Shown: positions 44,513-57,705 of the stretch, one piece after another
Layout: the number at the start of each line of letters is the position of its first letter
Position numbering within the stretch: position 1 is the first letter of the stretch
Assembly: GCA_965203415.1 (NCBI GenBank)
Contig: CBDBCS010000006.1
Location: 702,500-766,499 of the forward strand
Direction of reading: 5' to 3'
DNA length: 64,000 bases
DNA from: Alphaproteobacteria bacterium
GTDB lineage: Bacteria > Pseudomonadota > Alphaproteobacteria > CBDBCS01
Notes under the pieces: generated by a model
What the model was told of the DNA's origin: nothing
The model's database searches: none
The model's input: only the letters and a program-made list of their open reading frames with translations
Program-made: the position numbers and the translations under genes

Positions 44513-46585
44513 GTGACACTATCGACTTCAAAGACTGCATCGACACCATCCCATAGTCCGGCCAAATCGAGGCCGCAGGCGGCGGGCGACTCGAGAGTCG
44601 TAGACTCGAGACTCTTGGACGCCATCACCTTAGGGCGAGTTTCGGTGGACCTCTATGGCAAGCAGGTCGGCGCGCGCCTGGAAGACACGGCGAGTTTCCA
44701 AAAATACGTCGGAGGCTCGCCAGCCAATATGGCTATCGGCATGGCGCGCTTAGGGCTCAGAGTCGCCTTTCAAACCCGCGTCGGGAACGAGCCCTTCGGC
44801 CGCTATATTCTCGAACAAATGCAACGCGAGGGCGTTTCTACAGACGCCATCGTGACAGACCCGACGCGCCTCACGGCTCTGGCGGTGCTGGGCATCCGAG
44901 ACACACAACAATTTCCGCTCATTTTTTATCGAGAAAACTGCGCAGATATGGCTTTGTCCGTCGAGGACATAAACCCAGACCTGTATCGCCAAACGCGTTG
45001 TGTCATCGTGACGGGGACTCATTTTTCTACAGAGACAACCCGAGCGGCAAGCACGAAAGCGATGGAACTCGCCAAAAAAACGGCCGGGGAAACGGACGCC
45101 CGCGTCGTGTTCGACATAGACTATCGTCCGGCTCTGTGGGGGCTGGCCGGGCTGGGCGACGGCGAGCAACGCTATATCCAGTCTCAACGCGTTACGGCGA
45201 GATTGCAGGAAGCCCTGCCTTGGTGCGACCTCGTGGTCGGGACCGAGGAGGAATTCGCCATCCTAGGCGGCCACACAGACCCCTTAAAAGCTCTCCAGCA
45301 GATTCGTCGAATCCGAGACATCGATCTCGTTCTCAAAACGGGCCCTCGAGGCTCCGTCTTTTTTCCTGCCGGGGGCGAGATTCGGTCTCTCCAGTCAGGC
45401 CACCACGTTCCGGGCTTCCCCGTCACCGTCTTCAATGTCTTGGGAGCCGGGGACGCTTTCATGGCCGGCCTCATGCGCGGCTATCTGAGACAAGAACCTT
45501 GGGAGACGTCTTTGACATGGGCCAATGCTTGCGGTGCCTTCGCCGTCTCGAGACACGGGTGTGCGCCCTCCATCCCGACGTGGGACGAGTTGTCTTATTT
45601 TCTGGAACACGGCACGCAGACACCTGAACTCCGCAAAGATGCTCGCCTGGAACAACGCCACTGGGCAACGACGCGCCGCTACCCGAGTTCTCAATTGCGG
45701 GTCTTCGCCTTCGACCACCGAGCCCAGCTAGAGGCCATCGCTACGCAAACCCAAGCCGATTTTTCCAAAATCTCCGTCTTCAAAAAACTGTGCCTCGCCG
45801 CCACAAAAAGAGTCGCAGACCAGGCTCTAGAAAAGGCCGGTGGGTCTCCGCCGGCGTCGCCCTCGGCCCCTGTGTCGGCCCCTGTGTCGGGCTATGGGTT
45901 TTTGTGCGACGAACGCTACGGCCAAGAGGCTCTTTTCGAAGCCACCGAGACCCATCTATGGTGCGCCCGCCCCGTCGAGAAACCTGTCTGGACCGAGGCT
46001 CACACAGACCTGGAGCTCGAAATCAGCCCGGACTTCGGGACCCATCTAGCCGAGTGGCCCGTCGACCACGTTATCAAGTGTCTCTGCTTCACGCACCCCG
46101 AGGAACCGGCAGAAAAACGACAGAAAAAAATAGACATCCTGATTCGGCTCTTCCGGGCGGCCCGCCAGACCGACCACGAGCTCTTGCTAGAGATTATCGC
46201 CGATAAAGCCTATCCCCGACGCGAAGACACGGAGGCTCGACTGCTGCAGGAGATCTATGACAAGGGCATCTATCCGGACTGGTGGAAACTGCAAGCCGCC
46301 GAGACGCCGGGGCAGTGGGAAGCCATCACGCAGACCATTGCGCGCAACGACCCCTATTGCCGAGGCATTTTGCTCTTGGGGCTGGCGGCCACCGAGACCG
46401 CCATGGCCGAAGCTTTCAACATGGCGAAACCCTATGAGCTGGTCCGAGGCTTTGCCATCGGGCGCACCATTCTAGACGCCCCCGCTCGCGCCTGGTTCGC
46501 CGGAACAATTTCCGACGCAACCGCCGTCGAGCAAATGGCGAAAAGCTATGCGCGCCTCTGTCGCCTGTGGGACGCCCGCGCTTAA
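44513..46585 (+). CDS. iolC: 5-dehydro-2-deoxygluconokinase fused to a DUF2090 aldolase-like domain
   Basis: GRVSVDLYG.Q, YVGGSPAN and PfkB VLGAGDAF motifs; C-terminal AFDHR, PDWWKL and GFAIGRT; exact start uncertain. Confidence 0.96.
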   Translation: MTLSTSKTASTPSHSPAKSRPQAAGDSRVVDSRLLDAITLGRVSVDLYGKQVGARLEDTASFQKYVGGSPANMAIGMARLGLRVAFQTRVGNEPFGRYILEQMQREGVSTDAIVTDPTRLTALAVLGIRDTQQFPLIFYRENCADMALSVEDINPDLYRQTRCVIVTGTHFSTETTRAASTKAMELAKKTAGETDARVVFDIDYRPALWGLAGLGDGEQRYIQSQRVTARLQEALPWCDLVVGTEEEFAILGGHTDPLKALQQIRRIRDIDLVLKTGPRGSVFFPAGGEIRSLQSGHHVPGFPVTVFNVLGAGDAFMAGLMRGYLRQEPWETSLTWANACGAFAVSRHGCAPSIPTWDELSYFLEHGTQTPELRKDARLEQRHWATTRRYPSSQLRVFAFDHRAQLEAIATQTQADFSKISVFKKLCLAATKRVADQALEKAGGSPPASPSAPVSAPVSGYGFLCDERYGQEALFEATETHLWCARPVEKPVWTEAHTDLELEISPDFGTHLAEWPVDHVIKCLCFTHPEEPAEKRQKKIDILIRLFRAARQTDHELLLEIIADKAYPRREDTEARLLQEIYDKGIYPDWWKLQAAETPGQWEAITQTIARNDPYCRGILLLGLAATETAMAEAFNMAKPYELVRGFAIGRTILDAPARAWFAGTISDATAVEQMAKSYARLCRLWDARA

Positions 46586-46795
46586 AAACACCGTGGCGGA
46601 AAAAACGTGACCGAACAAACAGCCAGGAAGCGTGTCAGGAACATACCGGTGAGCATGCCGGTCAGGCAAGAACGGCTTTTGCGGACGCACGCCGGAGGAA
46701 ACAAGCAAAGCGGCACCGCACCCACCCTCGAGTGGACTGTCTTGGACGTTCCGGACCGTGTTCTGAATTGATAATATCTCGAGAACGCTTTAATC

Positions 46796-48793
46796 ATGAC
46801 TCAGAGAACGCAAGAGACTCACGGCGTGCCGGAGGGACCCGAACGTCGGTCTACACGGTCCCCCGGGCAGACGACCGGGCGGACGGTCCGGCTCACGTGT
46901 GCTCAGGCTTTATGTCGGTGGCTCTGTGCGCAGAAAATCGAGTCCGAAGGCCAAGTCGTCCCCTTCGTCGGCGGCGTCTGGGCCATTTTCGGACACGGCA
47001 ATGTGGCGGGCCTCGGCGAGGCCCTCTACGAAGTGCGCGAGCACCTCCCGACCTATCGAGGGCACAACGAGCAATCCATGGCCCACGCGGCCATCGCCTA
47101 TGCAAAAACGCTCAATCGGCGACGGTGTATGGCTGTGACGACCTCGATTGGCCCCGGGGCCACGAATCTGGCGACGGCGGCGGCCACGGCTCATGTCAAT
47201 CGGCTGCCTCTTTTATTATTGCCCGGCGATGTGTTTGCCAGCCGTCTGCCTGACCCGGTCCTCCAGCAGCTGGAGCCCTTCGAGAGCGGGGTGCTCTCGG
47301 TGAATGACGCCCTTCGGCCGCTCTCCAGGTATTTTGACCGACTGACTCGCCCTGAACAGCTTTTGAGTGCCCTCCCCCGCGCCATGATGGTCCTGACCGA
47401 CCCGGGGCTATGCGGGCCTGTTACGCTCGCCCTGTGCCAGGATACGCAAACCGAGGCCTATGCGTATCCCCGAAGCTTCTTCGAGCCAAGAGTCTGGCAC
47501 ATCCGACGCCCACCCCCAGACGACGACGATATACGGAGGGCCGTGGACACTATCCGGCGGTCTCGAAGACCTTTGCTCGTCGCAGGCGGCGGCGTCCACT
47601 ACGCCCAGGCACCAGAGGCTCTGCGAGATTTTACCGACACAACCGGCATCCCCGTGGTGGAAACGCAGGCTGGCAAATCGGCCCTTCCCTGGACGCATCC
47701 TCACAATCTGGGAGCCATCGGTGTAACAGGAACCGACCCCGGCAATCAATTGGCGCGCGAAGCCGATCTTCTCTTGGCTGTCGGGACGCGTATGCAGGAT
47801 TTCACCAGCGGGAGTAATCATCTGTTTTGCAACCCGGACCTCCAGCGCGTATTTTTGAATGTCCAGCCCTATGATGCGTTCAAGCATCAGGCTTTGGGTC
47901 TGGTGTGCGATGCGAGACGGGGGCTCGAGGCCCTCCAGGCGGCCTTGGCTGGCTGGCGCGCCCCAGAGAGCTGGACTCAAAAAGGAGAAGCTTTGCGAAA
48001 AATCTGGTTCCAGAAATGCGACGAGGTCCAACGTCTGCCGGCGTCTGATTCGAATCGGCGGCCAACGGATGCTCAAGTTCTCGGTGCCGTGAATCGACAT
48101 GTCGGCCCTGGGACCGTGATGCTCGGGGCCGCCGGCACCATGCCGGGCGAGGGACACAAATTCTGGCGCACCGAAGAGCCCAATGGCTACCACATGGAAT
48201 ATGGCTTTTCCTGCATGGGCTATGAAATTGCGGGAGCTCTGGGGGCTAAAATGGCGCGCCCCGACCGCGACGTCGTCGTGATGGTCGGCGACGGGTCTTA
48301 TTTGATGCTCAATTCCGAGTTGGCCACAGCCGTGATGTTAGGGATTCGCTTCACCCTTGTGCTCACGGACAATCAGGGGTATGGGTGCATTGCCCGGCTC
48401 CAGGAGGCGGTCGGCGGGGCTCCCTTCAATAATCTTTTCGAGAGTTCGAAGCACGCGCGCATGCCGGCCATCGACTATGAGGCCCATGCGCGGGCCCTGG
48501 GCGCAGAAGCCGAAAAATTGACGCATCTGGCCGACATGGAACACGCCCTGGCACGGGCCAGACGCGCCGAAACTTGTTATTGCATTGTCGTGGAAAGTGA
48601 CCCTCTGACGAGTCAGAAGCTCGGCGGTACATGGTGGGAGGTCGCCGTCCCCGCCGTCTCTCGGCGCGTCGAGGTCCAAAACGCCCGACGCACCTATGAG
48701 GCCAGATGGGCCGAACGAGCCGGCCTCGCCGAAACCCCAGAGGCCCGGGATGAGTGCCAGGATGAACGCAACGAAACGGAACCCAAACCATGA
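46796..48793 (+). CDS. iolD: 3D-(3,5/4)-trihydroxycyclohexane-1,2-dione acylhydrolase (ThDP-dependent)
   Basis: RLTCAQAL, IFGHGNVAGLG, TSIGPGATN, YHMEYGFSCMGYE and GDGSY motifs. Confidence 0.97.
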   Translation: MTQRTQETHGVPEGPERRSTRSPGQTTGRTVRLTCAQALCRWLCAQKIESEGQVVPFVGGVWAIFGHGNVAGLGEALYEVREHLPTYRGHNEQSMAHAAIAYAKTLNRRRCMAVTTSIGPGATNLATAAATAHVNRLPLLLLPGDVFASRLPDPVLQQLEPFESGVLSVNDALRPLSRYFDRLTRPEQLLSALPRAMMVLTDPGLCGPVTLALCQDTQTEAYAYPRSFFEPRVWHIRRPPPDDDDIRRAVDTIRRSRRPLLVAGGGVHYAQAPEALRDFTDTTGIPVVETQAGKSALPWTHPHNLGAIGVTGTDPGNQLAREADLLLAVGTRMQDFTSGSNHLFCNPDLQRVFLNVQPYDAFKHQALGLVCDARRGLEALQAALAGWRAPESWTQKGEALRKIWFQKCDEVQRLPASDSNRRPTDAQVLGAVNRHVGPGTVMLGAAGTMPGEGHKFWRTEEPNGYHMEYGFSCMGYEIAGALGAKMARPDRDVVVMVGDGSYLMLNSELATAVMLGIRFTLVLTDNQGYGCIARLQEAVGGAPFNNLFESSKHARMPAIDYEAHARALGAEAEKLTHLADMEHALARARRAETCYCIVVESDPLTSQKLGGTWWEVAVPAVSRRVEVQNARRTYEARWAERAGLAETPEARDECQDERNETEPKP

Positions 48794-49734
48794 ACCAGGC
48801 CATGAACCAAACCATGAAAAAGACGGAACTCTTGTTCGGGGTGAGCCCCATCAATTGGTCGAACGACGACGAGCCGAGTCTCGGCGGACAGATTCCCCTC
48901 GACACCATGCTGGCCGAGGCCGCCCAAGCCGGGTATGACGGCGTCGAAAAAGGGCATAAATTCCCCGCCGACCCCGGAATTTTGCGAGAATGCCTCACGC
49001 CGCATGGGCTTCAATTGGTCGGAGGGTGGTGGTCTACGCACCTGCTCGAGCGTTCCGTCGAAGACGAAATTCAGGCTGCTCGCCCGCATATTGAGCTCTT
49101 GAAAGCCCATCACTGTCGCGTTTTTATCGCCTGTGAGACCTCTGGCAGCGTCCATGGCACCCGTTCCGCGCCCTTATCGAGCCGGCCTCGCCTGGCGGCG
49201 GAGGCTCGGCGGGCGTTTTGTCAGAAACTCACCGCTCTGGCGGATTATCTGCAGCAGCTGGGGCTCGAGCTGGCCTATCACCCGCATATGGGCACCCTCA
49301 TACAGACCGAGGAAGATATCCAGCACATCCTTCAGGGATGTGGCTCTTCTGTACGGTTTGCACTGGATTCGGGTCACGCTCTTTTTGCCGGAGACGACCC
49401 CGTTCGATTGGCCCAACTCTTGGCCGACCGCGTCGTGCACCTGCATTGCAAAAACATCCGAGCCCCCGTCTTGAAACAAATGCTCGACGAGGACGCGAGT
49501 TTCCTCCATGCCGTCCAGGCAGGCGTCTTCACCGTCCCAGGCGACCCAGACGGCTGTATCGATTTTGAGGCCTTCCTGAGAGTCTTCGCCGAGAAAACCT
49601 ATCGGGGCTGGCTGATCTGCGAGGCCGAACAAGACCCCGAGCGCGCCAATCCACGCCAATACGCAACCATGGGGTGCCAGACGCTTCGAGACCTTGGACG
49701 GAAACTCTGGACTTCGGGCCCCGCCTCACCCTAG
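48790..49734 (+). CDS. iolE: myo-Inosose-2 dehydratase
   Basis: SPINWSNDD, YHPHMGT, DSGH, FTVPGD and EAEQDP motifs; three tandem ATG-containing 12-mers at the start. Confidence 0.96.
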   Translation: MNQAMNQTMKKTELLFGVSPINWSNDDEPSLGGQIPLDTMLAEAAQAGYDGVEKGHKFPADPGILRECLTPHGLQLVGGWWSTHLLERSVEDEIQAARPHIELLKAHHCRVFIACETSGSVHGTRSAPLSSRPRLAAEARRAFCQKLTALADYLQQLGLELAYHPHMGTLIQTEEDIQHILQGCGSSVRFALDSGHALFAGDDPVRLAQLLADRVVHLHCKNIRAPVLKQMLDEDASFLHAVQAGVFTVPGDPDGCIDFEAFLRVFAEKTYRGWLICEAEQDPERANPRQYATMGCQTLRDLGRKLWTSGPASP

Positions 49735-49772
49735 CTCACCCTGTCTCACCCTAGCTCACCCTAGCTCACCCC
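49725..49772. repeat. 10-bp tandem repeat (CTCACCCTAG) x ~5 containing the iolE stop codon
   Basis: Seen directly in the sequence. Confidence 0.9.
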
Positions 49773-49830
49773 GGGAGCACACAAAAACAAGAAAACAGAA
49801 AACAGAAGCAGCAACTTTGGAGCGAATACG

Positions 49831-50694
49831 ATGACATCCTCTTTACTTGTGAAAAGCAACTCCCCTTCGTCGGCGGGCTGTGTCTTGGATCTTCCCCCCG
49901 AGAAAGCTGGCTGGAAGTACGTCGGCTTCGAGCTCTATCATCTTCGGCCGGGACAGACGCTTGATGTACATTACCCGGAACGCGAGTGTCTGGTCTTTCT
50001 CATCCAGGGAAAGGTCCGCGTCACGCTGGGGCCAGAACCGCCTCGGGAAATCGGCGCGCGCATGGAGCTTTTTTCGCGCCAGAAACCCTGGTCGGTGTAT
50101 GTGCCTCGCGCGAGGCGTTTCCATCTGGAGGCCACCACGGAAGTCGAGTTTGCACTCTGCACGGCCCCCGGGAAGACCGACCGTCCGCCTCGTTTTATTC
50201 CGCCGGACGATGTCAAGGCTCTGGTTCGGGGCGAGGGGACCAATCAACGCTTCATCCATAATGTCCTGATGGACCAACAGGATTGGGCGGACGCACTGCT
50301 TGTGACCGAGGTCTATACCCCGGCGGGGCATTGGTCCTCGTATCCGCCGCACAAGCACGACACCGACAACTATCCCGAGGAAACCTGGCTGGAGGAAATT
50401 TACTATCACCGCCTCAACCCGCCCCAGGGCTTCGGGTATCAGCGCGTCTATACAGACGACCGAACCCTGGACGAGCATATCGGATTTGAGAACGGCGACG
50501 TCGTGAAAGTGCCGCGCGGGTATCACCCGGTTGGGACTCCCTACGGGTATGAGCTGTATTATCTCAATGTCATGGCCGGGCCTCAGCGGCGTTGGTGCTT
50601 CAAGAATGATCCGGCTCATGCGTGGATGCTGGAGCCCCGCCAGCGTCCGGAAGATCCGGACGGCCAGCGTTCTGATAAAACAGAGCCGTCTTGA
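49831..50694 (+). CDS. iolB: 5-deoxy-glucuronate isomerase
   Basis: AGWKYVGF, WSSYPPHKHD, LEEIYY, VPRGYHP and YYLNVMAGP motifs. Confidence 0.97.
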   Translation: MTSSLLVKSNSPSSAGCVLDLPPEKAGWKYVGFELYHLRPGQTLDVHYPERECLVFLIQGKVRVTLGPEPPREIGARMELFSRQKPWSVYVPRARRFHLEATTEVEFALCTAPGKTDRPPRFIPPDDVKALVRGEGTNQRFIHNVLMDQQDWADALLVTEVYTPAGHWSSYPPHKHDTDNYPEETWLEEIYYHRLNPPQGFGYQRVYTDDRTLDEHIGFENGDVVKVPRGYHPVGTPYGYELYYLNVMAGPQRRWCFKNDPAHAWMLEPRQRPEDPDGQRSDKTEPS

Positions 50695-51091
50695 AAAGGC
50701 GTTCCCACAAAAAACGCAGACCATTGGCTCTGCCCGGAGATAAGTGGCCGGCCAGACCTGTCTGCTCTATAAAGCGCGGGGGGGCCTCCAGAATTTCTGA
50801 AGGCGAACGGCGGTCGTAACAACGCAGGAACAGAGCCACAAGGCCCTTCACAATTAAAGCGTCGCTGTCGGCCTGGAACCTAAGCGTGTCCGTCGCAGCG
50901 TCATAAGCAGACACAAGCCACAGACGCGACTGACACCCGGGAACGAGATGGCGGTCCTGACGCTCGGCCTCGGGGAGGGACCGGAGGGCCATGCCCAGAT
51001 CAATGAGATGCGCATACCGGTCGGACCAGTCCTCGAGAAAGGAGAAATCCTCGCAGATGGCTTCTTGAATGTGCCGGATAGAATCAGGCAT
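50600..51091 (-). CDS. sufE: Fe-S cluster assembly sulfur acceptor SufE
   Basis: DWSDRYAHLIDLG, VPGCQSRLW, DSDALIVKGL and LSPGRANG motifs. Confidence 0.95.
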   Translation of the reverse strand: MPDSIRHIQEAICEDFSFLEDWSDRYAHLIDLGMALRSLPEAERQDRHLVPGCQSRLWLVSAYDAATDTLRFQADSDALIVKGLVALFLRCYDRRSPSEILEAPPRFIEQTGLAGHLSPGRANGLRFLWERLFKTALFYQNAGRPDLPDAGGAPASTHEPDHS

Positions 51092-51517
51092 CAGACGACA
51101 GAGCCTCCCATGCGTTTAGGCCCAATAACCATGAAAAGACGGACAGAAGAACGAAAGAAGCGAAACCAGCCACACACACCCAACGATACACAATTTTTGG
51201 CCCACCGCCGTCCAAAAATAGTCGCGCATACAAACCCGATGCATGGGCCCGATGCATGGGCCCGGTGCATGGGTGTGCTCCTCCGGTGGGTGTGTATCCA
51301 TGCGCCCGCTGCACCCCGCCCCTATAAGACACAAGCCCCCGAAACAGACCCACGAGGATAGCTCTCTGGTGCGAGCGGGGCCATCCGGGCTCGCCGGCCG
51401 GCGGTCTGTCTGCCGGACGCCCGTTCGGAGGCTCCGAGTCCGTCCAAATACACCCAGACCAGATACACCCAGATAAGGCGGGATGGCTCAGAAAACAGGC
51501 CCCCATGGTCAAAGAAA

Positions 51518-52399
51518 CTATTGGTGCCCGCCTCTCGAGAGTTTGTGTATAAACCATTCGTATAGGCCGCGCGGGAGGCAGACTCTGGCATACCACAGAC
51601 CTGTGGGCGCTAAACCCGGGCGAAGGCGGAGCGGCGGGCGCCGGCGCCGCTCGATGAGCTTCACCAGTTTTTTCGCCACCTGCTCGGGCGTAAGCGTCAA
51701 CATCGGGGCCCCGCGTTTCCGATGAAGCCGAGACATCACGTTCTGGTAATTCTCCCTGTGGCGCGAAGCTTCCAGATCTAGATACCGACGCGCATAGGGC
51801 AAAGAGCCCTTGCGAAAATCGGATTCCACGGGGCCCAATTGAACACTCGTCAGGCGTATGTTCTGGCCGTAGAGCTCGTGGCGGAAGGCCTCGACGATGC
51901 CCTCCAGCGCGAATTTGGCCGAGACATAAGCCGCCCGATACGGCAAAGCCGAGAACCCAAAAACAGAGCTTATAAAAATAAGCTGACCCGCCCGCCGCTG
52001 GAGCATGCCGACTAAAAGACTGTTGGTGAGCTCTATGGTCCCGTATAAATTGGCCTCGAATTGCAGGCGTAAGGCCCGGCGCGTGAGGTCCTCGGCGGCC
52101 CCGGGCACTTGAAACCCGGCATTGGCGATGAGAACGTCTATCGTTTTGCCCTCGCGTTCTAGGCGCGCGACCAGAGCCTTGATGGAAGAGCTCTCGGCTA
52201 AATCCAATTTGTATAGATCCGGCACGCCGGCCGTGGCGGCCTGCCCCGGCTCGCGCGAGGTCCCCAGAACCTCATGACCGGCTCGGCGGCCTATGTCCAG
52301 AAAGGCCCGGCCAATCCCGCGCGAGGCGCCGGTTACCAAAATCGTTTTCGGCTTCCTCGAACGCCGTGCGCGCGACGCGGACAGAGACGCCTCAGCCAT
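51518..52399 (-). CDS. Classical short-chain dehydrogenase/reductase
   Basis: TGASRGIG, ANAG, ISS and catalytic YVSAK motifs; 8-bp overlap with the upstream fusion gene. Confidence 0.93.
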   Translation of the reverse strand: MAEASLSASRARRSRKPKTILVTGASRGIGRAFLDIGRRAGHEVLGTSREPGQAATAGVPDLYKLDLAESSSIKALVARLEREGKTIDVLIANAGFQVPGAAEDLTRRALRLQFEANLYGTIELTNSLLVGMLQRRAGQLIFISSVFGFSALPYRAAYVSAKFALEGIVEAFRHELYGQNIRLTSVQLGPVESDFRKGSLPYARRYLDLEASRHRENYQNVMSRLHRKRGAPMLTLTPEQVAKKLVKLIERRRRPPLRLRPGLAPTGLWYARVCLPRGLYEWFIHKLSRGGHQ

Positions 52400-54752
52400 C
52401 GGGCCGCCTATCGGACTTATCAGGCCTGGCCTCGCCGGACGTCGCCGAGGCGGCCGAACGCCTAGAACCCGAAGCTTTCAAAGACCAGCGCAGAGACCGC
52501 AAGCGCCCCCGCCTCGCGGGCCCCGCCACGGGCGACGCTCTGTCAAGGTTCTCGAGTTCCATCGCTCGGAAGCTGTTCATAATGTGTGTCTCTACGTCGC
52601 TGACCGGATGCGAGGCATCCAGAAAAACCGGGGGGCCAACATTGAGGGCCGCTCGCTTGAGATCTATCTTGCCCTGCATGGCTCGGTAAAGCCAGCCCAG
52701 AGCCCGGAAAAATAGACCTCGCGGGTCCGCCCGAGACGCCCCACGGTGCAACTCATCCTGAAGCTGTGCCTCATCGGCTCGTTTGTCGTAACGAATGTGA
52801 ATCGGTAAAAAAGCAAAGGGCTGGCCGGTCTCGCTCAGAAGACGAAAGAGCCCCTTCTTGAAGGGGAGAATCGCTCCCGTCCGAGACCGACGTCCCTCGG
52901 GAAAAAACATAAACGGGCGTCCACTTTTGACGACTCTTTCTATGTCGCGTCGAAGAATCGGGATGTCCTTTTTTTTAGGCTCACGCTCTATAAAGAAGAC
53001 GCCGAAATAGCGCATCATCAGCGCAATGAGACGCATGCGGCGAAACTTACCCGTCGCCGCAGTCTTCAAAGCGCGCATCTTCAGTTCCGGACGGACGTAA
53101 GTTAAAAAATAAACGAGTAAAAAGTCAAAATAGCTCTTATGAGTCGGCGTGATGACCAATTGATAGCCCGGCGGGATTTGCGAAAGAGCCGCAATCAAAG
53201 CCTCATAGTTCAGGTGCACCGCCTGGAACGACCGGAAATAAACCGGAAAGGCCACCAAGCAAATCAACCAGAAAAAAAGAGAAAACCCGACACGCGGTAC
53301 AATGAAGCGGCGCGTTCGGCGATACCCTCGATAGGAACGCCCGCCCAGCGTGACAACGCCCTGATTGGTTCTGAGAAGATAGCGCGTGACACCATGATTG
53401 ACGAGAAGATGATAGAGACGTCCGCTACGCGCCGGCCCATACCGACATGGGTCGGCATCTTGAAAAGAAAATTCCTGCGAAAAAAAGCCTCGAAGCTCTT
53501 TGTTGAGGATGGCCCCCGGTGCCTCCTGTCGGCGCAGGCGGCGGGCCTCGGGTCCCTGGCCTGTCCGCTCGAGACGCCGCAGATAAAGTGCCCGAGGGAG
53601 GGCCTCCAGGAAAAACGACAGCAGACGAAAAAGCCAGGCCCGGCGCACAATAAAAGGACGATAGCGATACCCTCGCGGCGGAAAATGACGAAAAACGTCA
53701 TAGGCCGTGTTGCGCAGGTCCTGGATTTTCAAAAGATGGGCGCTCGACGCGGTGGCGTACACCACAAGGGGGCTCTTGTCGTCCGCCGAGTCTGGGACGC
53801 GTTGCACCGTCGCCAGCAGGCGGGCGGCCACAAAGTCTACCGGCACCAGATTCGGGCGCACCGCAGGCTCGCAGAGCATCCCAGGCACCTGACCATTGGC
53901 GAAACCGGACAAATACGCACTATAGGCCGTCTGAGCGTCCGTCCAGCCCGGAACAGGGTCACGAAGAGCCCCCGCTAAAAGCGCAGGACGCAGCATCGAT
54001 AGCGCAAAACGCATGGCGCCTGCGCGATGACGCGTCCAGAGTAAATGCTCGGCCACCGCTTTCGCAAAGGCGTGACCGTTCGCGAAACCGTACTCGTGGT
54101 AATCGAAGAATTGGTTGTCCCATGCGCTTTCCTGCATCGTGCGATAGAGGTCCTCGGGGTCGCGCCCGCCAAGCGGCGGGAGAGCCAAAGGCGCGGGGGC
54201 GGGAGTCCGCACCACGCCGCCGCCGCTTCCCGGACGACCTGGCCACACATAAGCCGTCGAGACATGCACGAAATGGCGTAAATTCGGCATGAAGCGCGCC
54301 AGGTCCAGAACGTGAAGCCCCATCCCGACCGTGAAACGCGCGGACACCACCAGCGGGACGTCGAAACGCACGGCGTCCGCTATATGTACGAGATGGGTCG
54401 TCTCGCGGAGCAGCATCGAGCGGTCTTGAGGCTCTAAATCGAGCCCCGGCGACGTCAGCCGCGCCGGCACAATCCGACATTTTTTTCTGAAAGCGGCGAA
54501 ACGCGCCAAAACCTCGGGAGGAAACCTCTCCAGAGCGGCTTCAAAACGCGCCCGGGCGGAACGAGCTCCCTTGTCTCGAACGAGAACAAAAATACGACCT
54601 ATCGAGGCGGCAGGCGTCCCAGAAGACACACCCGAAGCCATGCCGGGCACCGATAAAGTCGACTCCGATGAAGCGGATTCCAGAGCCAGAAAATAGAGAA
54701 AAACTTTCCCTAGAAATCCATTCGCCCCCGTGACCAAATAATTGCTTAACAC
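52392..54752 (-). CDS. Fatty acyl-CoA reductase (extended SDR, male-sterility type) fused to a PlsB/GNPAT-type glycerolipid acyltransferase
   Basis: N-terminal VTGANGFLGK, H.A..VRFD, HVSTAYV, AKAVAEHLL, LRP..DPVPGW and NLVPVDFV; C-terminal PTHKSYFDFLL, GVFFIER, FFPEGRRSRTG and LPIHIRYDK. Confidence 0.85.
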   Translation of the reverse strand: MLSNYLVTGANGFLGKVFLYFLALESASSESTLSVPGMASGVSSGTPAASIGRIFVLVRDKGARSARARFEAALERFPPEVLARFAAFRKKCRIVPARLTSPGLDLEPQDRSMLLRETTHLVHIADAVRFDVPLVVSARFTVGMGLHVLDLARFMPNLRHFVHVSTAYVWPGRPGSGGGVVRTPAPAPLALPPLGGRDPEDLYRTMQESAWDNQFFDYHEYGFANGHAFAKAVAEHLLWTRHRAGAMRFALSMLRPALLAGALRDPVPGWTDAQTAYSAYLSGFANGQVPGMLCEPAVRPNLVPVDFVAARLLATVQRVPDSADDKSPLVVYATASSAHLLKIQDLRNTAYDVFRHFPPRGYRYRPFIVRRAWLFRLLSFFLEALPRALYLRRLERTGQGPEARRLRRQEAPGAILNKELRGFFSQEFSFQDADPCRYGPARSGRLYHLLVNHGVTRYLLRTNQGVVTLGGRSYRGYRRTRRFIVPRVGFSLFFWLICLVAFPVYFRSFQAVHLNYEALIAALSQIPPGYQLVITPTHKSYFDFLLVYFLTYVRPELKMRALKTAATGKFRRMRLIALMMRYFGVFFIEREPKKKDIPILRRDIERVVKSGRPFMFFPEGRRSRTGAILPFKKGLFRLLSETGQPFAFLPIHIRYDKRADEAQLQDELHRGASRADPRGLFFRALGWLYRAMQGKIDLKRAALNVGPPVFLDASHPVSDVETHIMNSFRAMELENLDRASPVAGPARRGRLRSLRWSLKASGSRRSAASATSGEARPDKSDRRPDG

Positions 54753-54787
54753 AGCCGGAGCCTACGCAAAAAAACAGGCCGAATCAA

Positions 54788-55398
54788 GCAGAACAACAAG
54801 CAAAGACAAACTCCCCGGGCGGGAATAGACCAGGAACACACGTGGACGTTCCACCGAACGTTCTCCCAGGCGTTCTCCAGGCGTTCGCCGACCCGTTCCC
54901 CGACGCAACGTGCCCCTATCAGGCTTGTGCCGCCGCTCCCAGCTCAAACAAGAGCCTCAGAGACCCCCTCGGCGTTTCCGCTGGGCGAGCCGGCCGGGCC
55001 CAAATGCTCCCGATTGTCGCGCAACCACGCATCAACAACGGGGCCACGGGCCGGAACGGCTCCAATACCGCTTGCACGAGGCCGCCAGCTTGGCCGCCAG
55101 CACCTTATAGCCGGGTAGACCAGACCGGCGGACAAGGTGTAGGCGTAGCCGTGCTCGTCCATAGAATGGTCATCGGCTGTGCCGAGGGCCCTGTCCTCTT
55201 TGAGAAGGCAGAACAACAGGCATAAGACAAGCTCCCCGGGCGGGAATAGACCAGGAACACACGTGGACGTTCCACCGAACGTTCTCCAGGCGTTCGCCGA
55301 CCCGTTCCCCGACGCAACGTGCCTTATCAGGCTTGGTGCCGCCGCTCCCAGCTCCATAGAGCGCTCCCAGCTCGAACGGCACGCCTCAGAGAACCCCC
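54788..55398. repeat. Two diverged ~180-190-bp direct repeats (54788-54968 and 55208-55398) flanking a ~240-bp unique spacer
   Basis: Shared core CTCCCCGGGCGGGAATAGACCAGGAACACACGTGGACGTTCCACCGAACGTTCTCC...GCCGCCGCTCCCAGCTC; offset about 420 bp. Confidence 0.93.
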
Positions 55399-56250
55399 CA
55401 GCCGACTTCCCGTCCGCTCGACCGGTTTTTTCACGGGGACCTGGTCTCTCGCCCGCTTCGGGCCGGGCAAACAAAAAAGCCTCCATCCCCATTTTACAGA
55501 GAGGAAAACGAGGCCTAGTCGGGCTCGGGCGGCGAGCACTGGGCATAGACATCGGACGGGCTACACCACTGTATCGGCAGCGCGAACCCTCGTTTATAGG
55601 CCCGCCACGGGCCGTCCTGGGCGCGAAAGCGGCGGACGGACGTCCGCAGCCGCTTCACCAGAGGGTCAAATCCAGGGAGGGTGGCGGCGAAGGTAATCGA
55701 GCTCGTCCCAGCCCACGCCCTGCCCTCCGCGCAGGAGGGCGTCTAGGGAAAAAAGACGGCACCCCTTCAACACAAGGTCGCCGTCTCGATTCAAAGAAGC
55801 CGATTCGATTTCGATAACGGGTCTCCCGCCACCGGGTGCGGTATTCCTCGGCGTTATCGATTCGAATCATCCGAACAAGGGCTTTGAGCCCACCGTTCTC
55901 GCCCGCCCGGGCGAAGAAACGGAAAGGGGTATAGCGGGGAGACGGCCTACGCATCGGGTTCGTCCTCCAGGCGGGGCGCCCAGATGCCCATCCAGATGCC
56001 CCCGTATTGCATGGACTCATACACCCATAAAACAGAACCGAAAAGACAGCACTAGAAGCCCCAAAAGCCGCCAGATTTTGAACTTGATTTATACCACGTT
56101 CCGGCGTAGGGTTACAGGCGTGGCGCGGGAAAAAAGGGAAAATAAGGCGGCGCAGACGGAGGCCGAGCTTGGCTGCACGTGTCTCTTTGAGGTGCCATCC
56201 TGAGGTGTCGTTGCGTGAGCCCCTATGACCGTTCTCCATGACCGTTCCTC

Positions 56251-57705
56251 ATGACCGTTCTTTGTAAATGCGTCCGGAGCTCGGCTTTTTTGATGCCGAC
56301 GCTCCGGGAAGTCCCCGCCGAGGCCGCCATTGCCTCGCATCGGCTTATGCTGCGAGCCGGGATGATCCGACAATCCAGCGCTGGGATTTACATCTGGCTG
56401 CCTCTGGGCTTGCGCGTTTTGTACAAAATCGCCGACATTGTGCGCGAGGGACAGAATGACATCGGCGCCCAAGAACTCCTTCTGCCGACCCTCCAGCCGG
56501 CGGAACTCTGGGAGCGTTCGGGCCGGTATGACAGCTATGGCGATGAGATGCTCCGATTGCGCGACCGCCACAACCGACCCATGCTCTACGGGCCGACCAA
56601 TGAAGAGCAAATCACAGAACTCGTTCGACAATGCGCGCTCAAACCCGGAGACTTTCCGCAACTGCTCTATCAAATCCAGTGGAAATTTCGCGACGAACGC
56701 CGCCCTAGATTCGGCGTGATGCGCGGCCGCGAATTTTTAATGAAAGACGCCTACTCTTTCGACCTGACCGAGGAACAAGCGATGAAAGTGTATCGCCGCA
56801 TGTTCGTCGCTTATCTGAGAATTTTCGGCAGGCTCGGCTTACGGCCCATCCCGATGCGCGCCGAAACCGGGACCATCGGCGGGTCGTGCTCGCACGAGTT
56901 TATCGTGCTCGCTCCGACCGGCGAGAGTCTCGTCTATTGCGACCGACGCCTCATGAGTCTGGAGATGCCGGCGTGGCAACCGGAGCCGGACTCGACCGCC
57001 TCGGAAGACGAACAAAACGCCCACATCGAGGCTCTGTTCGACAATTGGACAAGCGGCTATGCCGCAACTCAAGATACCCATCAACCAGACCAGTTCGAGC
57101 AGCTGGCCCCAGACAGACAGGCAACCGCTAGAGGCATAGAGGTCGGCCACGTCTTTTATTTCGGGACGAAATACGCCGAAGCCCTGGGGTGCGCGGTTGC
57201 CTCGGCGGCGGGGAAGGCGGGAGCGTTTGTACACTCGGGGTCTTACGGGATTGGCATCTCCAGGCTCGTGGCGGCCCTCATAGAGATTTTTCACGACGAG
57301 CGCGGGATCACCTGGCCGGTTCAGATGGCTCCATTTGATGTCCATCTCGCCAATCTGGCCCCCGAGGACGCCGCGAGCCTCCGGTTTTGCGACGAAGTGT
57401 ACGCGCATTTGGCCCGAGCCGGCCTCGAAGTTCTGTATGACGATCGAGCCCTCCGGCCGGGGGTCAAATTCGCCGATATGGACCTGATTGGCATTCCTTT
57501 CCGAGTCCTGGTCGGGCAAAAAAATACGGCGGCGCGGTGTTTGGAGCTCTCGCGGCGGGACGGGTCTCGCCAAGAGCGACTCCGATTCGAGGACCTGCTT
57601 CCCCGCTTACGAGCTCTCAGGGCCCAGGCGTTCGGGCAAGACCGGGGAGACCCGAGACAGACGGACCAGCCTCTCCCTGAACGGGCGGACGGTGAGCTGT
57701 GCTAA
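56251..57705 (+). CDS. proS: Proline--tRNA ligase (short alphaproteobacterial type)
   Basis: PTLRE.P.EA...SHRLMLRAG, GPTNEE, KFRDERRPRFGVMRGREF.MKDAYSF, GIEVGHVF and YGIGISR motifs. Confidence 0.98.
   Translation: MTVLCKCVRSSAFLMPTLREVPAEAAIASHRLMLRAGMIRQSSAGIYIWLPLGLRVLYKIADIVREGQNDIGAQELLLPTLQPAELWERSGRYDSYGDEMLRLRDRHNRPMLYGPTNEEQITELVRQCALKPGDFPQLLYQIQWKFRDERRPRFGVMRGREFLMKDAYSFDLTEEQAMKVYRRMFVAYLRIFGRLGLRPIPMRAETGTIGGSCSHEFIVLAPTGESLVYCDRRLMSLEMPAWQPEPDSTASEDEQNAHIEALFDNWTSGYAATQDTHQPDQFEQLAPDRQATARGIEVGHVFYFGTKYAEALGCAVASAAGKAGAFVHSGSYGIGISRLVAALIEIFHDERGITWPVQMAPFDVHLANLAPEDAASLRFCDEVYAHLARAGLEVLYDDRALRPGVKFADMDLIGIPFRVLVGQKNTAARCLELSRRDGSRQERLRFEDLLPRLRALRAQAFGQDRGDPRQTDQPLPERADGELC

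Follow-up and report, generated by a model that had tools for sequence, protein, structure and literature searches.

A divergent FARAT-type acyltransferase fusion coupled to a classical short-chain dehydrogenase/reductase in an alphaproteobacterial lineage without detectable PlsX, PlsY and GpsA

How does a bacterium begin to make membrane glycerolipids if the usual starter enzymes cannot be found in its genome? In the textbook scheme, bacterial glycerolipid synthesis begins at glycerol-3-phosphate (G3P), through either PlsB or PlsX/PlsY. The question is raised by a 64,000-nucleotide stretch of the genome of an uncultured alphaproteobacterium (hereafter the window; G000:C6:702500-766499, G000 being the source genome), in which a gene that fuses a fatty acyl-CoA reductase (FAR) domain to an acyltransferase domain, P0001, overlaps the gene of a classical short-chain dehydrogenase/reductase (SDR), P0002. 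We tentatively propose, with a confidence that falls slightly short of even, that the acyltransferase domain and the SDR form an acyl-dihydroxyacetone phosphate (acyl-DHAP) route to lysophosphatidate that replaces PlsX, PlsY and GpsA, and that the ether-lipid branch has been lost or is decaying in G000. To our knowledge, an acyl-DHAP route as the sole entry into glycerolipids is known from eukaryotic organelles and not from bacteria, and searching the literature for an entry of this kind in bacteria turned up none.

A coupled gene pair in genomes without detectable PlsX, PlsY and GpsA

The fusion gene lies on the minus strand at 52392-54752, starts with GTG and encodes a 786-residue protein. 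Its translation contains TGANGFLGK, HVSTAYV, PVPGW and LVPVD, together with all four acyltransferase blocks, I to IV (HKSYFD, GVFFIER, FPEGRRSRTG and PIHIRYDK). A preliminary description of the locus had reported this reading frame with these motifs, and coordinates, translation and Pfam domains all agree with it. Specifically, Pfam places a FAR-type NAD_binding_4 domain at residues 50-310 (53823-54605, minus strand; E 8.4e-36) and a PlsB/GNPAT-type acyltransferase domain, PF01553, at residues 525-646 (52815-53180, minus strand; E 4.5e-19). Both had been predicted; the Sterile domain (PF03015), listed beside them in the preliminary description, is not reported by the Pfam scan of P0001. The Rossmann strand of the FAR part begins at residue 3, ahead of the Pfam boundary at residue 50, and the dinucleotide-binding motif TGANGFLGK (residues 8-16; 54705-54731, minus strand) is intact in both the translation and the alignment. 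Block I of the acyltransferase carries the HX4D catalytic dyad, H538 and D543 (53124-53141, minus strand), and block III comprises E619, G620, R622, S623 and R624 (52875-52904, minus strand). Across the 39 sequences of the fusion alignment A1, H538, D543 and E619 never vary, and G620, R622, S623 and R624 are conserved at 90% or more. The gene does not sit on a stray contig, since the contig is 1.79 Mb long and the local GC content is ordinary (0.58-0.61). The G000 assembly amounts to 2.47 Mb in 8 contigs, at 86% completeness and 0.03% contamination.

The SDR gene, also on the minus strand (51518-52399, 293 residues, ATG start), begins within the end of the fusion gene, the two sharing 8 bp (52392-52399), exactly the overlap with an intact classical SDR that had been described. 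P0002 is assigned to adh_short (PF00106; E 3e-35), and its translation carries TGASRGIG, NAG and Y-V-S-A-K (YxxxK), the cofactor and catalytic motifs of a classical SDR. Beyond this, its relationships are broad. The best NCBIfam models score below their cut-offs (PRK05993, 176.6 versus 387), the nearest solved relatives are generic (3m1a, 17beta-HSD1 and FabG), and a search of the ESM Atlas returned generic SDR clusters alone.

The order is represented by one further genome, the sister genome G001 (67% complete), and the coupling recurs in it. There, a homologous SDR, 40% identical to P0002, starts 24 bp after the fusion stop. An SDR is thus linked to the fusion in both genomes with known context, by an 8-bp overlap in G000 and across a 24-bp gap in G001, and the co-conservation on which the preliminary description had staked its functional reading is borne out. 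In eukaryotes, a classical SDR (Ayr1, DHRS7B) serves as the acyl/alkyl-DHAP reductase. We propose that P0002, whose gene is translationally coupled to that of the fusion, is the dedicated ketoreductase of the fusion, a putative 1-acyl-DHAP (or alkyl-DHAP) reductase. G001 also has a 304-residue extended-SDR gene directly upstream of its fusion (L087:36-950); the G000 homologue of this protein (34% identity) is unlinked (C6:1277096-1278016). We considered the G001 extended SDR as a counterpart of the epimerase-family gene found in canonical fusion operons, but the similarity is weak (25% identity, E 9e-8).

We surveyed the starter genes of glycerolipid synthesis in 41 genomes, namely G000, G001 and 39 relatives from the class, one per family, including the unpublished genome G040. 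Profile searches with PlsY (PF02660), PlsX (PF02504) and the GpsA C-terminal domain (PF07479) gave no match in G000 or G001. Of the 41 genomes, 37 have PlsY, the four without it being G000, G001 and two genomes of 0.5 Mb and 1.2 Mb. PlsX occurs in 38, the exceptions being G000, G001 and the 0.5-Mb genome, and GpsA in 36, being absent from the same three and from two others that are 77% and 88% complete. When four PlsX, four PlsY and three GpsA proteins from relatives were searched against G000 by tblastn at E <= 1, only chance-level matches appeared (E 0.11-0.49). A weak PF01210 match in G000, examined as a possible GpsA, is a 3-hydroxybutyryl-CoA dehydrogenase. The fusion itself occurs in two of the 41 surveyed genomes and in two of 401 genomes of the class (about 208 families), and these are G000 and G001, the same two for which the starters are missing.

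Gene order shows that the loss of plsX is real rather than an assembly gap. In relatives the order is rpmF-plsX-fabH, and in both G000 and G001 the slot between rpmF and fabH is assembled with unrelated sequence inside. In G000, about 1.1 kb separate rpmF from fabH, and an unrelated 373-residue open reading frame (ORF) occupies this interval (C4:433425-434546; L105:1926-3047, minus strand). In G001 the slot holds an unrelated 442-residue low-complexity ORF with repeats rich in Ser, Ala, Met and Pro (L144:168-1496). Neither ORF can be taken for PlsX, as they show no similarity to PlsX or to one another, and neither has a family match; each could be either a new gene or what erosion has left of plsX.

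Neither G000 nor G001 yielded a GlpK or a UgpB, and with neither GpsA nor GlpK found, there is no obvious way for G000 to make G3P from DHAP or glycerol. Three PF01553 acyltransferases are present in G000: the fusion, a 256-residue PlsC-like protein and a 341-residue OlsA-like protein. No sn-1 acyltransferase other than the fusion was found in G000. The WS/DGAT profile (PF03007) had no match in G000 either, a result that is uninformative, as the control genomes were silent as well.

The FARAT family and an altered reductase site

To which family does the fusion belong? A phmmer search of P0001 against 1.84 billion cluster representatives gave 3604 matches at E <= 1e-3, 789 at E <= 1e-10 and 95 at E <= 1e-30, and most of the top matches are proteins of 780-925 residues aligned over both domains at 27-33% identity. 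Two relatives are nearer, P0004 (738 residues, 41% identity) and P0007 (720 residues, 31%), and they were the sole close relatives recovered by word-index protein searches. A metagenome scan with an alignment of the P0001 subclade found no further members, just matches to the acyltransferase part alone at about 27% identity. The AlphaFold2 model of P0001, built with a 39-sequence alignment as input, has a mean pLDDT of 85.4 and a pTM of 0.86, and confidence is low only in a lineage-specific insert (about residues 31-50) and in the tail that begins at residue 740. In a PDB fold search the model matches the rice fatty acyl reductase DPW best (7eoz, E 6.9e-21), with thioester-reductase domains next; the PDB match of the acyltransferase domain is GPAT/PlsB 9vuq (E 1.4e-11). 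Against the NCBIfam plsB model TIGR03703, P0001 scores 52.7 bits (E 2.5e-14), below the equivalog cut-off of 618.5, and against NF003441 it scores 49.3 bits (cut-off 610).

We built a maximum-likelihood tree of the acyltransferase region from 106 rows, with E. coli PlsB as the outgroup, after dropping rows without a match to the HX4D pattern. Its references comprise this one PlsB and no named GNPAT or GPAT, and its rows include locus L008 of the unpublished genome G402. P0001, P0004 and P0007 form one clade with an SH-aLRT of 100 and a long stem, and this clade falls within a set of 92 bacterial rows of FARAT/ElbD type (SH-aLRT 99), with E. coli PlsB outside. The domain therefore does not group with ordinary PlsB/PlsC, as the preliminary description had anticipated; the tree does not resolve where inside the set the clade branches. 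A clade in the same tree assembly consists of 17 ElbD-like multidomain rows (1300-2700 residues), some of which are named alkyl-DHAP synthase by their source; ElbD of M. xanthus shares the acyltransferase type with P0001 but has a far larger architecture, P0001 having no acyl-CoA synthetase or acyl carrier protein (ACP) domains. A separate clade (13 of 14 long proteins, 1000-1350 residues) is taken to represent eukaryote-like FARATs, the source being recorded for P0086 alone (eukprot). From the Pfam domains, the FAR fold, the 95 clusters at E <= 1e-30 and the tree position of the acyltransferase, we assign P0001, by sequence comparison, to the bacterial FARAT family, of which it is a divergent member restricted to its lineage.

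The preliminary description had thus named the kind of module correctly, as FARAT-like with a FARAT/ElbD-type acyltransferase, but such a fusion is not new to bacteria. The available text of PMC9131029 and PMC13012113 describes MXAN_1675 of M. xanthus as a bacterial FARAT whose operon also contains MXAN_1676 (AGPS) and MXAN_1674 (a member of the NAD-dependent epimerase/dehydratase family), and that of PMC13012113 argues that the eukaryotic FARAT derives from Myxococcota. In addition, a preprint on the ether-lipid genes of sponge symbionts (10.64898/2026.06.23.733905) places elbD and agps in Poribacteria, Acidobacteriota and Latescibacterota, and the word Alphaproteobacteria does not occur in its main text.

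To define the canonical context, we used a scan of GTDB species representatives that yielded 80 loci, 22 of which have a tblastn match over both domains (L007-L023, L025-L028 and L034; L024 and FAR-only matches were excluded). These 22 fusion loci come from Myxococcota, Gemmatimonadota, Bacteroidota, Binatia, Bradymonadales and Spirochaetota. At each locus, the scan took in plus-strand ORFs of 150 residues or more, namely the closest one upstream of the fusion and the first two downstream of it, which gave 59 proteins in total; the resulting counts include L008 from G402. An AGPS-like gene (FAD_binding_4 plus FAD-oxidase_C) lies directly upstream of the fusion in 18 of the 22 loci, a PEDS1-like Lipid_desat gene lies upstream in two, and an extended SDR (PF01370) lies downstream in 12. 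A PF00106 SDR was found in none of the 22 loci (0 of the 59 scanned neighbours). In L018 and L034 (Gemmatimonadaceae / Gemmatimonas), the fusion frame is about 1140 residues long, with an N-terminal extension of about 390 residues, and a PEDS1/CarF-like Lipid_desat gene is positioned directly upstream in place of AGPS.

P0001 resembles MXAN_1675 and its homologues in Myxococcota, Gemmatimonadota and other phyla in the order of its domains, FAR followed by a GNPAT-like acyltransferase, with 25-33% identity over both; in both systems a reductase gene adjoins the fusion, and the acyltransferase domains fall in the same tree assembly. The differences are several. AGPS stands upstream in most canonical loci, whereas in G000 it is found neither nearby nor elsewhere in the genome. 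The canonical partner is an extended SDR, whereas that of G000 is a classical one. P0001 lacks the C-terminal extension of roughly 150-200 residues seen in the forms of about 890 residues, and a His replaces its catalytic Tyr. Furthermore, the lineage of G000 and G001 is without PlsX, PlsY and GpsA, whereas among five canonical carriers (G402 included) GpsA is present in all five and PlsY in three. With the eukaryotic FARATs of Tetrahymena thermophila and Dictyostelium discoideum, and with animal GNPAT/FAR1, P0001 shares the logic of a FAR-DHAPAT (DHAP acyltransferase) fusion, as set out in the available text of PMC13012113. The eukaryote-like long forms, however, occupy their own acyltransferase clade, and G000 has no peroxisomal context and no AGPS.

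The most conspicuous departure of P0001 lies in the FAR active site. The motif reads NGHAFAK (54060-54080, minus strand), with His227 (codon 54072-54074) in place of the catalytic Tyr of N-x-Y-x3-K and with two conserved Thr changed to Ala, whereas N-[ST]-Y-x-x-x-K is kept in all 38 other fusions of A1. S165, T166 and K231 are retained, so that the catalytic triad departs from the intact state at the Tyr alone. Conserved positions were defined by agreement of at least 90% among 36 more distant relatives. P0001 departs from the consensus at 14 of 49 such positions in the FAR half, P0004 at 5 and P0007 at 9; in the acyltransferase half, the three deviate at 8, 8 and 7 of 33, mostly at the same positions. 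The extra change is therefore confined to the FAR domain of the G000 copy. The His227 codon is covered without difference by contigs of runs X1, X2 and X3, which all belong to one study that may include the source sample, and this agreement makes a one-off assembly error unlikely. Judged from these substitutions, the FAR domain of P0001 appears disabled or decaying, and its activity may have been lost.

Variation among strains is uneven along the pair. Among the 40 of 72 variants listed, 12 of 13 in the SDR are synonymous, compared with 7 of 13 in the FAR part (6 of 13 being non-synonymous) and 9 of 14 in the C-terminal acyltransferase part, a partial pattern that weakly suggests tighter constraint on the SDR gene than on the fusion gene. 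Across 51400-54900, the metagenome contigs of runs X2 and X4 (one study) also show minor strain variants that occur together, and the changes are clustered, for example nine within 54492-54553.

AGPS, the enzyme that an ether-lipid pathway would need next, was not found in G000 (86% complete) by profile search, and tblastn with two AGPS queries recovered only a D-2-hydroxyglutarate-dehydrogenase-like gene. This is the single FAD-oxidase_C protein of G000; its best matches are 3pm9 and D-2-hydroxyglutarate dehydrogenase, and we rejected it as AGPS, which it matches only at 1e-11 to 1e-13. The remaining FAD_binding_4 match is a 388-residue frame without FAD-oxidase_C, a candidate MurB from its length alone. 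PEDS1 (PF10520) was not found in G000 either, which says little, the control genomes being silent too. The genome-wide search proposed in the preliminary description therefore came back empty for G000, yet it succeeded in the sister genome. The fusion of G001 is split over two contig ends and has an intact FAR motif, NSYTFTK, and an unlinked 621-residue protein is a true AGPS (mammalian AGPS 4bby, E 4.7e-114; 44% identity to Cystobacter AGPS). In composition, the contig that carries it matches G001, with a tetranucleotide correlation of 0.80-0.84 with three other G001 contigs and of 0.46-0.51 with G000 and the canonical carriers. The lineage thus had the ether-lipid set. In G000, where the searches found no AGPS and a His stands at the FAR catalytic Tyr, the branch appears lost or decaying.

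These observations bear on an unlikely alternative, that the pair is a working ether-lipid module. In such a module, the FAR domain would supply the fatty alcohol and the acyltransferase acyl-DHAP, alkyl-DHAP would be formed by an AGPS whose gene lies outside the assembled sequence, and the SDR would reduce the alkyl-DHAP. The arrangement AGPS-FARAT-reductase is the canonical one, both in our loci and in the available text of PMC9131029. G001 has the FARAT, the SDR and a true AGPS, the G000 assembly leaves room for a missing gene, and the NADPH-binding motif of P0001 is intact together with the Ser/Thr and Lys of its triad. Set against these are the His at the catalytic Tyr, seen again in contigs of three runs, the altered conserved FAR positions, and the failure of profile and tblastn searches to find AGPS or a remnant of it in G000, with PEDS1 likewise not found. 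The preliminary description had held that the two-gene operon could supply three of the four steps of ether-lipid synthesis; for G000 this is doubtful.

An acyl-DHAP route and its alternatives

What, then, might the pair do? In the acyl-DHAP route that we favour, the acyltransferase domain would acylate DHAP using acyl-CoA or acyl-ACP, the SDR would use NADPH to convert 1-acyl-DHAP into 1-acyl-glycerol-3-phosphate, and a separate PlsC-like enzyme would carry out sn-2 acylation. In what we consider the simplest history, an ancestor of the order would have gained a FARAT with its reductase and AGPS and would then have lost PlsX, PlsY and GpsA, and through these losses the FARAT acyltransferase would have been left as the only sn-1 acyltransferase. 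The ancestral ether branch, in which FAR makes the alcohol and AGPS swaps the acyl group for it, would have been kept in G001 and would be gone in G000, where the FAR active site would be eroding while the acyltransferase blocks and the SDR stay conserved. From established knowledge of GNPAT and AGPS, DHAP is the native acceptor of the FARAT family. The DHAP route is favoured because an acceptor of this kind and a tightly coupled ketoreductase are what an acyl-DHAP route needs. A broader claim is also possible, although we hold it with less assurance: the whole order may have dropped PlsX, PlsY and GpsA and may start its membrane lipids in the peroxisomal style, with a horizontally acquired FARAT acylating DHAP and a recruited classical SDR reducing acyl-DHAP, so that in G000 a fossil FAR would ride on an essential acyltransferase.

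Several points weigh against this proposal. No known sequence feature separates DHAP-specific from G3P-specific acyltransferases, which makes the assignment of the acceptor indirect, and the nearest curated and solved matches of the acyltransferase domain, TIGR03703 and 9vuq, are G3P acyltransferases. P0002 is generic by its similarity to other SDRs, and a His for the catalytic Tyr is no proof that the FAR domain is inactive. Both genomes are incomplete (86% and 67%), and G000 and G001 represent one evolutionary event, with no independent replicates. G000 encodes a PgsA-like protein (98 bits versus a cut-off of 109), and a real PgsA would need G3P; it also encodes one glycerophosphodiesterase, which could supply it. 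On the evidence of these two proteins, a G3P pool may exist, and the acyltransferase could simply use G3P.

This last thought leads to an alternative that we regard as improbable, in about the same measure as a working ether-lipid module: the acyltransferase would be a PlsB-like enzyme acting on scavenged G3P, and the SDR would act on some other lipid or aldehyde, for example by completing a FAR reaction stalled at the aldehyde. The matches to G3P acyltransferases, the PgsA-like enzyme with the glycerophosphodiesterase and the lack of a specific assignment for P0002 all agree with it. Like E. coli PlsB/GPAT, P0001 has blocks I-IV, and it would fill the role of sole sn-1 acyltransferase in a genome without PlsX and PlsY. 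However, it differs from that enzyme in the fused FAR, in the acceptor proposed here (DHAP rather than G3P) and in its score far below the equivalog level, which, with the tree, identifies the domain as FARAT-type and not PlsB. GpsA, GlpK and UgpB were not found in G000, the tight coupling to an SDR is conserved in both genomes, and DHAP is the acceptor in the pathway of the FARAT family. A third alternative, that the pair is a functionless, decaying relic of a lost ether-lipid pathway, agrees with the degraded FAR active site, the absence of AGPS from G000 and the proportion of non-synonymous variants in the FAR part, but is very improbable given the intact 786-residue frame, the full set of acyltransferase catalytic blocks, the nearly all synonymous SDR variants and the failure to find another sn-1 acyltransferase in G000.

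Surrounding sequence and implications

On the 5′ side of the fusion gene, a 1.5-kb stretch with no assigned strand and no recognisable gene (54753-56250), presumed to be a promoter or leader region, separates it from proS. It contains two direct copies of a unit of about 110-160 bp, at 54803-54914 and 55224-55323, which are 88-98% identical, and a 71%-similar piece of this unit occurs elsewhere on the contig (C6:992637-992842). The ORFs of the stretch have no Pfam match, Rfam gave no match at E <= 0.1 in 50500-56400, and a scan for promoters and terminators found nothing beyond chance. On the other side of the pair, a myo-inositol catabolism cluster is encoded on the plus strand at 44513-50694 and comprises a PfkB kinase-DUF2090 fusion (IolC-like), a thiamine pyrophosphate enzyme (IolD-like), a xylose-isomerase-like TIM barrel (IolE-like) and a KduI/IolB protein; it is followed by SufE on the minus strand at 50600-51091. 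Elsewhere in the genome, a second CDP-alcohol phosphatidyltransferase (L119; G000:C6:1192109-1192771) has weak best matches, below cut-offs, to archaetidylinositol phosphate and PIP synthase models, matches of an inositol-phosphate type that are curious because the genome also has the inositol cluster.

Ether lipids are the smaller part of what makes the locus interesting; the larger part is that the canonical first steps of bacterial phospholipid synthesis appear to have been replaced. If the acyl-DHAP proposal is not true, P0001 is still a rare, divergent FARAT in a lineage outside Myxococcota. If it is true, the pair would illustrate cleanly how an accessory ether-lipid module is co-opted into core metabolism, and the lineage would offer a natural experiment on the role of the FAR domain after the loss of AGPS. 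It would also bear on the claim, made in the available text of PMC13012113, that the plasmalogen enzymes of eukaryotes came from bacterial FARAT operons.

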